Origin: a virus
Lineage: Duplodnaviria > Heunggongvirae > Uroviricota > Caudoviricetes
IMG/VR virus record: IMGVR_UViG_2534681704_000008
Strand: one strand, 5' to 3'
DNA length: 47,550 bases
Shown: piece by piece, positions 40,166-45,955 of the stretch
Numbering within the stretch: position 1 is the stretch's first letter
Layout of the letters: every line of letters starts with the position of its first letter
The notes under the pieces: model-generated
Seen by the model: only the letters and a program-made list of their open reading frames with translations
Database searches by the model: none
What the model was told of the DNA's origin: nothing
Program-made: the position numbers and the translations under genes

Positions 40166-40329
40166 AAGCGTGGTCTCTCGAAGAGCTGGCGCTGCTGTGG
40201 CGACACTCAAACGCTGAAGTCGCAGAGATTACCGGCCGCAGTATTGATGAGGTCGGAGATAAGCGGCTGCAAACCAATATTGAGCGTAATGGCTGGGATG
40301 TAAACGATCCGGAACGGGAGGATGCATGA
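40162..40329 (+). CDS. Small hypothetical protein absent from the ORF track
   Basis: 55 aa ([25 protein letters not shown]...), ATGA overlaps at both ends. Confidence 0.45.
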   Translation: MKAWSLEELALLWRHSNAEVAEITGRSIDEVGDKRLQTNIERNGWDVNDPEREDA

Positions 40330-41387
40330 GCAAAGTAGGCGATTATTTCTTTGAGTTCCCGGCGTCGCGCGGCACGCAGGGTTGTACGGTGACTTACATG
40401 ATCACAGCACCTGCCCGCGCACTGACGCGCATACTTGCCTCCGACAATCACGGCAGCACGCTCGATCGTTCTCAACGCGAAATTAACCAGGCGCGAGTGA
40501 AGAAGTTTTACCAGTACCTCGTCAATGCATACCAAAATAAAGAGCCCTTCATCATCCCGCCACTGGTCGGCAACTGCGACGCGGATATTGAGTTTGAAGA
40601 GTTCGGCAATACGAATGTGGGCGTCGCACGCTTCCCTATGGATGCAGTGATCAAGCTGTTCGACGGCCAGCACCGCGCAGCCGGATTAGCTGAGTTCTGC
40701 CGGACTTACGGAGAGCCAATCAGCATCCCGCTGATGCTAACCCATAATCTCCCACTGAAGGCACGCCAGCAGTTCTTCTCCGATATCAATAACAACGTCT
40801 CGAAACCTTCCGCTGCGATCAACATGGCCTATGACGGGCGTAATGAAGTTGCACAGGGGATGGTGACGTTCCTGTCTCAGCACGACACCTTCGCAGAGGT
40901 GACAGACTTCGAGCACAACGTCGTACCGGCGAAAAGTAAGTTGTGGGTGAGCTTCAAGGCGCTTAGCGACGCGACGGCCAAGTTTGCCAACGCGGGCGGC
41001 AAGCCGCTGGAAATGGGCGACATCGAATCCATCTGGGAGGCCTGGTTGGCCCTGACGCAGATCGAAGCGATTCGCCACGGCACCAGCCAGGCAGACTACA
41101 AGCGCGACTACATTCAGTTCCACGCAGTGATGATTAACGCCTTCGGCTATGCCGTTCAGCGGCTGATGGCTGACCACTCAATCGTAGATATCGTCCAGAT
41201 GATTGAGGAACTGGCGAGCAGTGCGGGCTCCTCTGAGATGGAAGACTTCTTCCTGATTTCCCGGTGGGGTGGTGTCTGCGTGAATGCCGAAAAAGACCGT
41301 CCAACGGTCATTGCCTCCGTTCCGGCGCAGAAATCTGCTGCAGACCGTCTCGTCAAAGTTATCCTGGCGAAAAGCCTTGAGGAGTAG
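40326..41387 (+). CDS. DGQHR-domain protein (ParB/DndB-like superfamily)
   Basis: 353 aa with an exact FDGQHRAAG motif. Confidence 0.7.
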   Translation: MSKVGDYFFEFPASRGTQGCTVTYMITAPARALTRILASDNHGSTLDRSQREINQARVKKFYQYLVNAYQNKEPFIIPPLVGNCDADIEFEEFGNTNVGVARFPMDAVIKLFDGQHRAAGLAEFCRTYGEPISIPLMLTHNLPLKARQQFFSDINNNVSKPSAAINMAYDGRNEVAQGMVTFLSQHDTFAEVTDFEHNVVPAKSKLWVSFKALSDATAKFANAGGKPLEMGDIESIWEAWLALTQIEAIRHGTSQADYKRDYIQFHAVMINAFGYAVQRLMADHSIVDIVQMIEELASSAGSSEMEDFFLISRWGGVCVNAEKDRPTVIASVPAQKSAADRLVKVILAKSLEE

Positions 41388-41389
41388 TT

Positions 41390-41845
41390 ATGACAATGCA
41401 GATGCACTCAATGCCCTGGCCTGAATCTCAGGCCATCTTTTTGTCAAAAACCTACCTTTACATGAACATGGATGAGCTGTGCAAAAGGTTACAACGCACC
41501 AAAGCGTCTATCCAGATGAAGGCCAGCAGCATGGGTCTTTACCGCTGTGGGAAATTAACCATCGACGATCTGCAGCTGATTGAAGCCCTGCTTGATGCCG
41601 GTCTTGAGCATGCGGTTATTGCCAGAAAGTTCGAACTCTCCAAGCCTCAGCTAATGAGGGTTCTGGAAACGGGAGCCTTTCATTGCGATATCTGCGGCAC
41701 GTTCTCCGCGTCTATGCGTTCCTCTTACTGGAAATTCGACGGAGAGCCGCAAAGGACTTATAGCTGCTGTCCGGAGTGTTGCCGGGCGATGGTTGAAAGC
41801 TTTAACGCAGGACACGACGGGCCGTTGCTGGCACGCAGACGGTAG
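41390..41845 (+). CDS. Hypothetical protein with C-terminal Cys-rich zinc-ribbon-like motif
   Basis: 151 aa; HCDICGTF...SCCPECC. Confidence 0.45.
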   Translation: MTMQMHSMPWPESQAIFLSKTYLYMNMDELCKRLQRTKASIQMKASSMGLYRCGKLTIDDLQLIEALLDAGLEHAVIARKFELSKPQLMRVLETGAFHCDICGTFSASMRSSYWKFDGEPQRTYSCCPECCRAMVESFNAGHDGPLLARRR

Positions 41846-41850
41846 GAGGC

Positions 41851-42510
41851 ATGACCGAAAAATACGCTCTTATCTACGCAGATCCTCCCTGGTCTTACGG
41901 CAACACCATCAGCAATGGCGCCGCTGCCGACCACTATTCCACCATGAAGCTAATCGACATCAAACGCCTGCCAGTCTGGGAACTTGCCGCCGAAAACGCT
42001 GTGCTGGCGATGTGGTACACCGGCACGCATAACCAGGAGGCGATCGAACTGGCCGAGGCCTGGGGCTTTACCGTTCGCACTATGAAAGGCTTTACCTGGG
42101 TGAAGCTGAACCAGAACGCCGAACTGCGCATCAACAAGGCGCTGGCTGAGGGTGAGGTCATCGACTTTTACGACTTCCTCGATCTGCTTAACGCCGAGAC
42201 TCGCATGAATGGCGGCAACCACACCCGGGCCAATACTGAAGACCTGCTGATAGCTACCCGCGGCGCCGGGCTGGAACGTAAGCACGCCGGGATTAAGCAG
42301 GTGGTGTACAGCCCACTCGGCGCGCACAGCGAAAAGCCGTGGGAAGTTCGGCACCGGCTGGAGCTGCTTTATGGAGATGTGCCGCGCATTGAGCTATTTA
42401 GCCGCAGCGCGGCGCCGGGCTGGGATCACTGGGGGAATCAGTGCGCCACCGCCGCGGTGGAACTGCTTCCCGGCTGCGCCATCGATGTTGTGAAAACGGA
42501 GGCCGCATGA
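41851..42510 (+). CDS. N6-adenine DNA methyltransferase, MT-A70-like
   Basis: 219 aa with the DPPW catalytic motif (YADPPWSYGN) near the N-terminus. Confidence 0.75.
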   Translation: MTEKYALIYADPPWSYGNTISNGAAADHYSTMKLIDIKRLPVWELAAENAVLAMWYTGTHNQEAIELAEAWGFTVRTMKGFTWVKLNQNAELRINKALAEGEVIDFYDFLDLLNAETRMNGGNHTRANTEDLLIATRGAGLERKHAGIKQVVYSPLGAHSEKPWEVRHRLELLYGDVPRIELFSRSAAPGWDHWGNQCATAAVELLPGCAIDVVKTEAA

Positions 42511-43556
42511 CGCCAGCAGCTTATTACAACGAAATCGACCCGTTCGCTGCTCAGTGGCTGCGTAACCTGATCGCCGGCGGTCATATCGCCCCGGGCGAAG
42601 TTGATGAAAGGAGTATTGAAGATGTCACACCTGACGATCTGCGAGGATTCACGCAGTGCCACTTCTTCGCCGGAATTGGCGTATGGTCTCATTCCCTGCG
42701 GCTCGCCGGATGGCCTGACGATAAACCAGTCTGGACCGGCTCCTGCCCGTGCCAGCCTTTCAGCGCGGCAGGCAAAGGAGATGGGTTTGCTGACGAGCGG
42801 CACCTTTGGCCCCACTTCTTCCACCTCATCAGCGAGCGCAGACCTGAGCATGTCTTTGGCGAACAGGTTGCAAGCGGTAACGCAAACACATGGTTCGACC
42901 TTGTACAAGCTGACCTGGAAGGAATGGAATACGCCTTCGGGCTTGTGCCGTTTGCGGCAGCGGGCGTCGGTGCTCCGCACATCAGAGAGCGGGCCTACTG
43001 GGTGGCCTACGCCAACAGCCAGATCGACGACCGGCGCAGGCACATCGGGGCGGATGGGAGGAATGAACATTCAGACTGCAGTAACCCTGACAGGTTGGCC
43101 GACACCCACAACGATCGACAACAATCAGGTTGCTGGCCAAGCTGCGGCTGCAAATGCACCAAAGCGGGGATCCACACTGGGCGGAGCATCAAGGCTTGCA
43201 GGATGGGTGACGCCAACCTCACGCGACTGGAAGGACTCGGCGGGAATGACTGCGCAGCGGGATGGCAAGGAGCGACTGGACCAGTTGCCTCGCCAGGCGT
43301 ACACATGCGGGCCCTTGAGGTTAACGGTTTTTGGCGAGATGCGGACTGGCTCTTTTGTAGAGATGGAAAATGGCGTCCAGTTGAACCCGGCACATTCCCG
43401 CTGGTTGATGGGGCTGCCGCGCGCCTGGTGCGAGTCGAGCCCGGGGTGGCAAGAGTGGCAAGCAGCAACCGCGTCGGCCGCCTGAAAGGGTACGGCAACG
43501 CCATAAACGCACAGGCTGCGGCTGAATTTATCCGGGCCTATATGGAGGGTTTATGA
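42507..43556 (+). CDS. DNA cytosine-5 methyltransferase (Dcm-like); reading frame possibly disrupted
   Basis: Motifs I (FFAGIGVW), IV (SCPCQPFSAAGK), VI (VFGEQV), VIII (HIRERAYW) and X-like (RLKGYGNAINAQAAAEFI) in the annotated frame; the +1 frame also looks coding in the middle. Confidence 0.6.
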   Translation: MTPAAYYNEIDPFAAQWLRNLIAGGHIAPGEVDERSIEDVTPDDLRGFTQCHFFAGIGVWSHSLRLAGWPDDKPVWTGSCPCQPFSAAGKGDGFADERHLWPHFFHLISERRPEHVFGEQVASGNANTWFDLVQADLEGMEYAFGLVPFAAAGVGAPHIRERAYWVAYANSQIDDRRRHIGADGRNEHSDCSNPDRLADTHNDRQQSGCWPSCGCKCTKAGIHTGRSIKACRMGDANLTRLEGLGGNDCAAGWQGATGPVASPGVHMRALEVNGFWRDADWLFCRDGKWRPVEPGTFPLVDGAAARLVRVEPGVARVASSNRVGRLKGYGNAINAQAAAEFIRAYMEGL

Positions 43557-44304: not shown

Positions 44305-44492
44305 ACAGAGCCTCTCCAGTTGATTTGAGGAAAAGCCTCGAAATAGCCAACCATCTGGCGCACATCGGGATTCGCTTTGTGCCGATCCCGGTGGCCACCA
44401 AAGAAGAATTCCAGACGCTGGCCGCCGAGTTATCGCGACGGCTTGAGCAGATGGCGGTCGAAGCCGAGAAGAATGAAGGCGGTGCAGCATGA
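44301..44492 (+). CDS. Small hypothetical protein
   Basis: 63 aa, tiled in the operon. Confidence 0.45.
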   Translation: MNRASPVDLRKSLEIANHLAHIGIRFVPIPVATKEEFQTLAAELSRRLEQMAVEAEKNEGGAA

Positions 44493-44583
44493 AGGAACTA
44501 ATCACCCAGGAGCTTAAGGCTCCTTTTTTATTGCTGGCGTTCACATTCAACCGAATTAACCGACAGTTCCGGGAGCATTGACC

Positions 44584-44802
44584 ATGGCCGATATCATCGA
44601 TACCGCAGCAGAGATTGAAGAGCTTCAGCGTAACGCTGCCCTTTCCGCTCACCGCGTAAATCGCAACGCCGTATCAGCTGAGCATTGCGCGGAATGCGGC
44701 GAGGATATCCCGGCGCCGCGGCGCGCTGCCGTTCCCGGCTGCCAGACGTGCGCGGATTGCCAGAGTGTTATCGAATTGAGGAATAAGCAAAGAGGACTTT
44801 GA
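44584..44802 (+). CDS. TraR/DksA-family C4 zinc-finger protein
   Basis: 72 aa from MADIID; CAECGEDIP...CQTCADCQ four-Cys motif. Confidence 0.7.
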   Translation: MADIIDTAAEIEELQRNAALSAHRVNRNAVSAEHCAECGEDIPAPRRAAVPGCQTCADCQSVIELRNKQRGL

Positions 44803-44848
44803 TAATGAAATTCGGGTTGCGGTCGCCACTCCGCTTCCCTGGCGCTTA

Positions 44849-44926
44849 TTAGGCGCTTAGTTGGTGAATCATATAGGCAAACATCACAAAGTAGTAGATG
44901 GCCTGAAAAACTTTGATTGCGTCCAT
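44849..44926 (-). CDS. Candidate 25-aa hydrophobic peptide with hairpin-sequestered SD
   Basis: MDAIKVFQAIYYFVMFAYMIHQLSA; GAGGGG SD 7 nt upstream forms the 3' arm of the cccctttgagggg hairpin. Confidence 0.3.
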   Translation of the reverse strand: MDAIKVFQAIYYFVMFAYMIHQLSA

Positions 44927-45236
44927 GTTTAGACCCCTCAAAGGGGCAAGGTCTTATCAGTAGCTGCCCACTTACCCCGCACTGATAACCCTCCATTACG
45001 GAGGGATTGCAGGTTGACAGCAATAGCCTGGCGGCGTAGCAGGGCAAGACCATTGAATAAAAGTTTGCGAATTACGCGTTAACGTAATTGCAGTAGTTTT
45101 TATCCATGGATTGCGGGCCTGTCTGTTCGCACCCCTCCGATATGTTGGCGTTTATATCACAAGCATTAGATTATTCCGATATCTTTTTTATGATCGGCAA
45201 CCAAAGGCTCATTTAACAAGCAAATAGAGGGTCAAA

Positions 45237-45563
45237 ATGGAGCAATACGAAACCGGTTCATCACTTCAGTTACGCAACCTTATTCGCCAACGCCACGCTG
45301 AATGGTCAGAAAAGACCTTCGGCAATGTCGGCCCCATTGGACCGCTGAAGCACCTTTCCAAAGAGGCGCTGGAAGCTGCAGCCGATCCTGGCGACCTCAG
45401 CGAGTGGGCTGATATGCAGTTCCTGCTATGGGACGCGCAGCGGCGCGCCGGTATCACCGATGAGCAAATCACCGCGGCGCTGGAAGAAAAGCTGAAGGTG
45501 AACATGACCCGCCACTGGCCGGAACCGAAAGACGGTGAGCCGCGTCTTCACATCAAACCATGA
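45237..45563 (+). CDS. DUF550-like protein
   Basis: 108 aa, AGAGGG RBS, MQFLLWDAQRRAGITDEQI; followed by a terminator-like hairpin plus T-run near 45622-45650. Confidence 0.55.
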   Translation: MEQYETGSSLQLRNLIRQRHAEWSEKTFGNVGPIGPLKHLSKEALEAAADPGDLSEWADMQFLLWDAQRRAGITDEQITAALEEKLKVNMTRHWPEPKDGEPRLHIKP

Positions 45564-45754
45564 CGCAACTGATAGCCAGTTATGAGCTGGCTATTGGGTG
45601 CGAAAGCACTGCAACGTCATCCCTTTTGCCCGGCCCCGCGCCGGGCTTCTTTTTGGGAGTTAACCATGCAATCAAACCCCATGACTTGGCTCATCGCCGC
45701 ACTTATGGCGCTGGGCGCGCTCATATCATTTCTTCACGAACCGGAAGGTGTGCA

Positions 45755-45955
45755 ATGGCTGCTTTTAATGTGGGCGCATTAGTCCAGAAGAAGACTGGCG
45801 GTATCAGAGGAAGGATAGAAAGCCTGCTGGAGCCGGAAAACGATAAGGCGAGGGTTTATGTCGCATGGGACGGCGGCACATATCAGATCCATTACGAATA
45901 CGAACTCCGCGCGGCCACGCCAGACCAGCCGCAGTTTTATAAAACGATGTCATAG
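45755..45955 (+). CDS. Small hypothetical protein upstream of xis
   Basis: 66 aa from MAAFNVGALV (GGAAGG RBS); a possible 38-aa membrane peptide (45666-45782) overlaps upstream. Confidence 0.4.
   Translation: MAAFNVGALVQKKTGGIRGRIESLLEPENDKARVYVAWDGGTYQIHYEYELRAATPDQPQFYKTMS

Follow-up and report, generated by a model that had tools for sequence, protein, structure and literature searches.

Introduction

Type I toxin loci are among the described systems closest to the element considered here, and the comparison set comprised tisB/istR-1, zorO/orzO and shoB/ohsC, together with hokW-sokW of prophage Sp5 (PMC8621323) and survey data (PMC2887945; PMC3919570). The element is a gap of 434 bp, positions 44803-45236 of the 47,550-nt viral DNA held as IMG/VR record IMGVR_UViG_2534681704_000008, which is a lambdoid prophage and will be called, at its full length, the window. 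No gene is called in this gap, which extends from the stop codon of a TraR gene (TGA, 44800-44802) to the start of a DUF550 gene (45237), borders that confirm the gap between a TraR-like and the DUF550 gene described in an earlier note written from the letters of this DNA. Tentatively, and with less than even confidence, we read it as a compact foreign cassette, that is, a leftward unit for a 25-residue, aromatic-rich hydrophobic peptide, similar to a type I toxin mRNA or to a moron. Lambdoid morons (Juhala et al. 2000; Hendrix et al. 2000) are promoter-gene-terminator cassettes inserted between conserved genes.

With type I loci the gap shares a very small hydrophobic open reading frame (ORF), here of 25 residues, a size of about 0.3-0.4 kb set apart from the neighboring genes, a Shine-Dalgarno (SD) sequence and AUG predicted to be buried in RNA structure, a prophage location, and an orientation against the surrounding operon, so that antisense RNA can arise. 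It differs from them in that its peptide, MDAIKVFQAIYYFVMFAYMIHQLSA, matches no known toxin model. The families considered were Hok/Gef, Ldr, Ibs, ShoB, TisB, ZorO, DinQ, Fst and others; no match to Pfam-A or NCBIfam was found at E<=10, and the sole PHROG match was phrog_5552, a "membrane protein", at E=0.11. Further differences are the lack of a definable antitoxin small RNA (sRNA) gene with promoter and terminator, the lack of a tandem duplication, and a composition rich in aromatic residues (3 F, 3 Y and 1 H) without the charged C-terminal cluster typical of many toxins. Tandem duplication, which is frequent in type I loci and not obligatory, was considered and rejected, as the halves of the gap align no better than shuffles (P=0.41); a second copy of the gap is also absent from the window. 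Judging from these searches, the cassette belongs to none of the known toxin families. Of the type I toxin reading put forward in the earlier note, the small hydrophobic ORF and the occluded SD therefore stand, whereas no family match and no definable antitoxin RNA could be added, and the label of type I toxin is speculation.

Lambdoid morons offer a second comparison. As in these, the cassette occupies a slot between genes whose order is fixed in relatives, its GC content lies below that of its neighbors (44-49% in the gap, 52-59% in the flanks), it is bounded by hairpins, and it moves as a unit among prophage mosaics. The DNA is thus extra to a fixed gene order and of deviating base composition, although it replaces two genes instead of simply being inserted; both its promoter and its terminator are no better than sub-consensus, and its cargo would amount to just 25 codons. 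In position and composition the cassette fits the moron concept, promoter and terminator being putative.

The third comparison set consisted of prophage sRNAs, namely the Pas sRNAs, DicF, AgvB/AsxR and STnc100 (bioRxiv 10.64898/2026.05.13.724894). Like these, the gap is a gene-free structured segment in a lambdoid prophage, and it could give rise to an RNA of about 90 nt ending in a hairpin and U-run. It differs in lying in the early-left region and not in the late/Q-lysis region, in being missing from all 5,426 complete Escherichia coli genomes, and in lacking an Rfam match (Rfam 15: none at the gathering score in the whole window, none at E<=10 on both strands of 44500-45500). Identity with the Pas sRNAs was rejected, as these belong to another prophage region and the gap has no match in complete E. 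coli genomes; the gap is unrelated to the Pas, DicF and AgvB class of prophage sRNAs.

A Candidate Micro-Gene on the Minus Strand

The ORF encoding MDAIKVFQAIYYFVMFAYMIHQLSA comprises 25 codons on the minus strand (44846-44926), beginning with ATG at 44926-44924 and closing with tandem TAA TAA stops at 44851-44846. Its SD sequence, GAGGGG, is the complement of 44934-44939 and is spaced 7 nt from the ATG. Both the 25-residue hydrophobic ORF (ATG 44926 to TAA 44851-44849) and the location of its GAGGGG within a hairpin stem had been pointed out in the earlier note and are borne out here, the SD being the 3' arm of hairpin 1 (see below) on the minus strand.

This ORF is the least chance-like feature of the gap. 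Among 3000 dinucleotide shuffles of the gap, 1.0% contained an ORF of 20-60 residues with ATG and SD that was as hydrophobic, and 0.5% did so when the grand average of hydropathy (GRAVY) was taken as the measure. On both strands of the 47.5-kb window, 22 small ORFs possess an ATG and SD, three of which are as hydrophobic as MDAIKVFQAIYYFVMFAYMIHQLSA. Its coding score, obtained with a codon log-likelihood model trained on the genes of the window, is 0.344 per codon, compared with 0.267 ± 0.19 for random 25-codon pieces of real genes and -0.10 ± 0.19 for spurious ORFs of the window (n=480), 1.9% of which reach this value. The likelihood ratio that follows from these values is roughly 13. Among all frames of the gap, the ORF scores best (P=0.001 against stop-free shuffles).

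The peptide has a Kyte-Doolittle GRAVY of 0.99, and its best 15-residue window contains 11 hydrophobic residues (I/V/L/F/C/M/A), above the threshold of at least 10 set by Fozo et al. (2010; PMC2887945) for membrane proteins. By that measure it is, as type I toxins are, a small protein (<60-70 residues) with a predicted membrane-spanning stretch. An amphipathic helix was considered and rejected, the hydrophobic moment being no different from that of shuffles. Exact look-up of MDAIKVFQAIYYFVMFAYMIHQLSA in a collection of 15 billion proteins returned nothing. On these sequence properties, the ORF is a credible candidate for an unannotated micro-gene.

A second stop-free frame of the minus strand, at 45075-45170 across the palindrome described below, scores 0.34 per codon, nearly equal to the ORF of MDAIKVFQAIYYFVMFAYMIHQLSA. 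Its sole start codon gives an 11-residue ORF, MDKNYCNYVNA, which has no SD and overlaps the 5' half of the palindrome; a leader peptide is conceivable, as is no role at all.

Folding of the Start Region and of the Gap

Short hairpins lie upstream of or at the start of the micro-gene candidate, and can form on both strands. Hairpin 1, CCCCT-CAA-AGGGG, is found exactly where it had been noticed before, at 44934-44946 (-7.2 kcal/mol on the plus and -8.6 kcal/mol on the minus strand). Hairpin 2, CCCTCC-ATTAC-GGAGGG (-11.3 and -10.9 kcal/mol on the two strands), is unique within the window and lies at 44989-45005, one base off its previously given position near 44990-45006. Between them, at 44954-44988, TTATCAGT-N19-ACTGATAA forms a perfect 8-bp stem of about -10 to -11 kcal/mol. 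A further hairpin, GGG..GCGG-N8-CCGC..CCC at 44814-44839 (-13.8 kcal/mol on the plus and -11.4 kcal/mol on the minus strand), is located on the minus strand downstream of the ORF, is followed by GAAUUUCAUUAU and adjoins the TraR stop codon; it is a candidate for a weak 3' end of a leftward transcript. Neither this hairpin nor the one with the 8-bp stem figured in the earlier note.

In longer minus-strand RNAs, hairpin 1 is only the alternative to a preferred 33-nt hairpin, CUUUGAGGGGUCUAAACAUGGACGCAAUCAAAG, which spans 44943-44911 (-12.1 kcal/mol) and encloses both the SD (44939-44934) and the AUG. This hairpin dominates the ensemble, and most of its stem bases pair with a probability >0.9. 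The occlusion of the SD suggested in the earlier note is hence reproduced as regards pairing of the SD, but the dominant fold is the 33-nt and not the 13-nt hairpin. The opening energy of the start region amounts to 10.9 kcal/mol, at about the 88th percentile of 40 genes of the window. The ribosome-binding site is thus predicted to be occluded in the mRNA, as in type I loci, although this property is not specific.

The strongest local structure of the gap, missing from the earlier note, is an imperfect palindrome of 60 nt at 45050-45109, whose folding energy is -17.5 kcal/mol for the minus strand (z -4.8) and -16.1 kcal/mol for the plus strand (z -2.2). Its inner stem, GCGAATTACG / CGTAATTGC, occupies 45067-45091, between an A-run (45056-45062) and a T-run (45097-45101), so that the whole resembles a bidirectional terminator. 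On either strand, the U-run lies 4-5 nt away from the inner stem and pairs with the A-run. Operator-like repeats were considered as an explanation and rejected, the palindrome and hairpin 2 each being present as a single copy in the window.

The gap as a whole is just mildly more structured than shuffled sequence. Compared with dinucleotide shuffles, its fold has z values of -1.7 (plus) and -2.1 (minus), and its structures are slightly stabler on the minus strand. The gap does not stand out in its number of perfect hairpins (P=0.23 against shuffles); for GC-rich ones there is a mild enrichment (P about 0.02, hairpin 2 entering the count twice). A model minus-strand transcript from 45144 to 44805 has a z of -2.62, and none of 100 shuffles folds as well. 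The folding check recommended in the earlier note thus finds a hairpinned start region and a transcript that surpasses all shuffles, and the impression recorded there, that the region is organized rather than spacer, is supported by this fold (z -2.6) and the start-region hairpin as well as by the signals of the ORF, its coding score and its low chance probability.

Replacement and Spread of the Segment

The gap is sited within the rightward early-left operon, in which YqaJ, DndB, MT-A70, a cytosine methylase, DUF1382, TraR, DUF550, a gene of 66 residues, the excisionase and the integrase follow one another (names from the Pfam families of identical loci and from PHROGs). Since the genes of this operon are tightly packed, a gene-free stretch of 434 bp is unusual. 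In more than 25 related loci from E. coli, Enterobacter, Citrobacter and a P22-like Salmonella phage, TraR is followed, also in tight packing, by a variable gene (73-240 residues), by DUF4222 and, 9 nt later, by DUF550. Homology with these loci does not extend past the TraR stop codon and begins again only with the SD and ATG of DUF550, which indicates that the gap is a derived state in which foreign DNA has taken the place of two genes. By this comparison, what the cassette has replaced between TraR and DUF550 in this prophage lineage is the pair of variable gene and DUF4222.

A decayed gene was considered as the content of the gap and rejected, as six-frame segments gave no Pfam or PHROG match and tblastx against the slot genes of relatives was empty. 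In an E. coli relative (L037, 2253-2500), 248 nt upstream of DUF550 are likewise unannotated by any caller; they read like an uncalled or decayed DUF4222 gene and are not a counterpart of the orphan gap.

The gap is present in 13 loci, from isolates and gut metagenomes, 11 of them with copies 100% identical and two (L001 and L008) with one single-nucleotide polymorphism, 44810 A>G, the lone one in any copy; it is synonymous in the frame of a 15-codon plus-strand ORF, MKFGLRSPLRFPGAY, treated below. One of the sequences concerned is E. coli MP021561.2 (GCA_000354795.2), which shares an identical 4-kb stretch with the window and in which the integrase adjoins fliE. The gap-bearing loci represent at least four distinct prophage mosaics, characterized by DndB with methylases, by RecT, YqaJ and HNH, by Erf, SSB and Kil, and by a fused methylase. 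Between mosaics, the TraR genes are about 7-13% divergent, and the sequences past the DUF550 terminator are unrelated. The identical block extends over about 44740-45600 and takes in the TraR 3' end together with the gap and DUF550; its left limit lies just past the 3' hairpin of the minus-strand unit and its right limit at the DUF550 terminator, the right part (45237-45653, plus strand) being DUF550 and this intrinsic terminator (45628-45653). The occurrence of an identical block in differing mosaics points to recent spread by recombination. The copies being near-identical, they leave nothing from which selection or covariation could be judged.

Outside these loci, no relative was found. BLAST gave no match for the 434 bp among 50,697 phage records, among 72,556 plasmids or, with the cutoff relaxed to E<=10, among the 5,426 complete E. 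coli genomes, and exact 20-26-mers from six parts of the gap do not occur in viral contigs, species-representative genomes or Joint Genome Institute (JGI) metagenomes. Back-translated patterns of MDAIKVFQAIYYFVMFAYMIHQLSA are absent from viral contigs, and the peptide has no tblastn match in phages or plasmids; a single metagenome match of the back-translated patterns (L036) was dismissed as chance, as it lies antisense to a glycosyltransferase gene. Nor were diverged copies of the gap found beside relatives of the flanking genes by blastn of 19 species-representative loci and E. coli relatives. The loci of four other 108-residue members of the DUF550 90%-identity cluster and a P22-like phage locus have the standard gene order and no copy of the gap. 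PADLOC gave no match for the gap, and membership in a defense system was rejected. On these searches, the 434 bp are to be regarded as orphan sequence.

Orphan status, together with the rare and derived state of the gap and its being known only as identical copies, would also be expected of inert filler, namely foreign DNA captured by an illegitimate recombination that deleted the variable gene and DUF4222 and kept since as neutral, its hairpins and ORF being leftovers or chance. Further points in this direction are the similar short sequences AATAAGCAAAGAG (44782) and AACAAGCAAATAG (45215) at the junctions, 433 nt apart, the negative promoter and terminator scans presented below, and the total hairpin count, which is not above chance. 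We nevertheless consider inert filler unlikely: the joint features of the ORF have a chance probability of about 1% and its composition is gene-like, the model minus-strand transcript folds better than all 100 shuffles, remnants of pseudogenes are absent from all six frames, and the block has spread into at least four prophage backgrounds.

The two junction sequences are 13-mers, at 44782-44794 and 45215-45227, just inside both junctions, and each is followed downstream by an SD and then an ATG. They may represent micro-homology for the recombination that created or could remove the gap, or chance.

Promoter and Terminator Signals

Promoter-like sites were ranked with a relaxed promoter weight matrix, and all of them lie under the threshold of the strict scan. 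The best minus-strand candidate, TCGGAA-17-TGaTATAAA with an extended -10, occupies 45179-45151 (to 45192 with an upstream A6 tract), ranks in the top 0.1% of the window and implies a transcription start near 45144. On the plus strand, TTGACA-17-TAGCAG (45014-45042, top 0.05%), in which the -10 is without the conserved final T, would start a rightward RNA of about 57 nt ending at the palindrome. The plus-strand site TTAGAT-17-TATGAT (45166-45194, top 0.27%) stands back-to-back with the leftward candidate and, from its sequence and position, could drive DUF550. The same matrix picks out TTGGCG-16-TAGATT within 45145-45194 and a sub-consensus TTGAGG-19-GATAAT at 44776, both on the plus strand.

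Intrinsic terminators were found by the terminator scan only outside the gap, before TraR (44508-44531) and after DUF550 (45628-45653); inside it, no GC-rich stem-loop is followed immediately by a U-run. The only plus-strand terminator candidate reachable from the ORF of MDAIKVFQAIYYFVMFAYMIHQLSA is the palindrome, and no antisense or trans-acting RNA partner with promoter and terminator can be defined in the gap. An imperfect repeat at 44915-39 / 45109-37, which could pair in trans with the start region, was rejected as not significant.

These signals could equally be viewed from the rightward operon, the gap then serving as its transcriptional punctuation and the ORF being coincidental. The palindrome would act as a bidirectional terminator for transcripts of the TraR operon unless antitermination is active, the AT-rich segment 45145-45200 would supply an internal promoter and 5' untranslated region for DUF550, and, with the terminator at 45628-45653, DUF550 would become a classic promoter-gene-terminator moron. 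Consistent with such a role, the palindrome is the strongest structure of the gap and has A-run and T-run flanks, canonical terminators precede TraR and follow DUF550, the promoter-like TTGGCG-16-TAGATT and TTAGAT-17-TATGAT at 45145-45194 point rightward, and gap and DUF550 always move jointly as an identical block ending at the terminator. However, 44803-45050, with an ORF that has SD, ATG and tandem stops and with three hairpins, would be left unaccounted for, and the 1% chance estimate and high coding score of this ORF argue against coincidence. Moreover, DUF550 lies 9 nt past DUF4222 in all relatives and there does without a dedicated promoter, and strict scanning accepts neither the promoter nor the terminator signals. 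Punctuation is accordingly a possible explanation, though on balance a somewhat doubtful one.

The best promoter-like site of each strand points into the palindrome, an arrangement which would suit a small regulatory RNA, rather than a peptide, as the product of the gap. Two candidates can be drawn: a minus-strand RNA of about 90 nt that would start near 45144 and stop near 45055, its 5' region being single-stranded and containing GGAGGGG and the palindrome serving as terminator, and a plus-strand RNA of about 57 nt that would span approximately 45049-45105. Within the gap, the local free energy is lowest at 45040-45119 (z -4.8, minus strand), a 95-nt RNA folds with a free 5' region followed by a terminal hairpin, and prophage-encoded sRNAs are common in E. 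coli (bioRxiv 10.64898/2026.05.13.724894). On the other hand, the promoters are sub-consensus, the U-run is 4-5 nt away from the inner stem and pairs with the A-run, Rfam provides no match even at E<=10, covariation gives no support as homologues are lacking, and the ORF of MDAIKVFQAIYYFVMFAYMIHQLSA would be left unexplained. With these points taken together, an sRNA is decidedly unlikely.

Proposed Expression of the Cassette

In the reading we tentatively prefer, a leftward peptide unit, the parts of the cassette are an AT-rich promoter region (45150-45200), a leader with the palindrome, three hairpins, the occluded start, the ORF and the terminal hairpin, and the cassette may be paired back-to-back with the promoter of DUF550. 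The AT-rich region contains back-to-back promoter-like sites, from which leftward transcription would start near 45144. The leader then meets the 60-nt palindrome and U-run, where most transcripts would be expected to stop, giving an RNA of about 90 nt, and some would read through. The read-through RNA is predicted by folding to form three hairpins and then the 33-nt hairpin that buries SD and AUG, so that translation would be low. The ORF closes with its tandem TAA stops, and the last hairpin follows beside the TraR stop codon. Upon prophage induction, rightward early-left transcription over the cassette would yield a perfect antisense RNA and collision, and the peptide would be silenced; its expression would thus be confined to the lysogen.

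Several results weigh against this scheme. The strict sigma-70 consensus scan of 44400-45700 found no promoter on either strand, and the number of relaxed matrix matches equals the chance expectation; the search for an antisense-RNA promoter advised in the earlier note brought up sub-consensus sites only. No hairpin of the gap passes the terminator scan, hairpins 1 and 2 being without U-runs. The score of the ORF is driven by amino-acid composition and not by codon choice (P=0.17 upon synonymous recoding), none of the gene callers applied across the 13 loci called it, and it is without homologue at the DNA or peptide level in the collections searched. The gap copies are identical, and purifying selection consequently receives no support from them. 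Lastly, five of the 40 ordinary genes of the window equal or exceed the opening energy of its start region; as these are equally structured at their starts, sequestration of the SD does not single out this ORF.

A more specific proposal is that the peptide forms an undescribed type I-like toxin module, with the prophage's own rightward early-left transcript as antitoxin. The peptide would then be made at a low level only under prophage repression and be shut off by antisense RNA on induction; alternatively, the module might work in the opposite sense, as an abortive or addiction device. We regard this proposal as very doubtful. If it were true, the lysogenic state would be linked directly to toxin expression, and a toxin encoded here would found a new family.

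Were the peptide real, an unannotated, homologue-free micro-gene, missed in 13 loci, would join the accessory repertoire of E. coli prophages, and a sub-kilobase cassette would be seen to replace ordinary early genes and to spread between mosaics by recombination in the flanking TraR gene and terminator. Were it not a toxin, the gap would be an example of foreign non-coding DNA tolerated in a tightly packed phage operon. That a prophage should carry a small ORF of this kind is no surprise, and the practical value is modest, as the element is rare and no phenotype is known.

Neighboring Genes and Other Observations

The TraR gene (44584-44802, plus strand) is followed after 2 nt by the ORF MKFGLRSPLRFPGAY (44805-44852, plus strand), 15 codons long and with AGAGGA 8 nt upstream. 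As it occupies the start position of the next gene in related prophages, this ORF is, from its position, probably a leftover start site or a coupling ORF. Just upstream of TraR, at 44484-44531 (plus strand), a terminator-like hairpin, AGGAGCTTAAGGCTCCT, is followed by T5 and sits inside a 30-residue ORF annotated by some callers. Homology to other mosaics (L004 and L006) starts at 44484-44487, so that TraR looks like a separate terminator-bounded module.

Farther upstream in the early-left operon, 40326-43556 (plus strand) comprise a DndB-like gene, a gene of 151 residues without known function, an MT-A70 adenine methylase and a C5 cytosine methylase, according to the Pfam families of an identical locus (L002). 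Such a cluster of DNA-modification genes is unusual for a lambdoid early region.

On the other side of the gap, the DUF550 gene (45237-45563, plus strand; Pfam PF04447) encodes a dATP/dGTP pyrophosphohydrolase of 108 residues, which aligns with the C-terminal part of far longer PHROG profiles, for instance 279-376 of 385. In several species-representative loci, the DUF550 domain carries fused N-terminal extensions of up to about 400 residues, and the stand-alone form is one of several architectures. The structure of its terminator (45628-45653) is kept in two of the other loci (L001 and L006), in which the stem and loop sequences differ.

Directly past this terminator, and overlapping the start of the 66-residue gene, an uncalled hydrophobic ORF of 38 residues, MQSNPMTWLIAALMALGALISFLHEPEGVQWLLLMWAH, extends over 45666-45782 (plus strand), with GGGAG 7 nt upstream. 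A diverged allele (L004 and L009) keeps frame and length, and seven of its ten differences fall at third codon positions. Judged by this pattern of substitution, MQSNPMTWLIAALMALGALISFLHEPEGVQWLLLMWAH is probably a real small membrane protein missed by gene callers.

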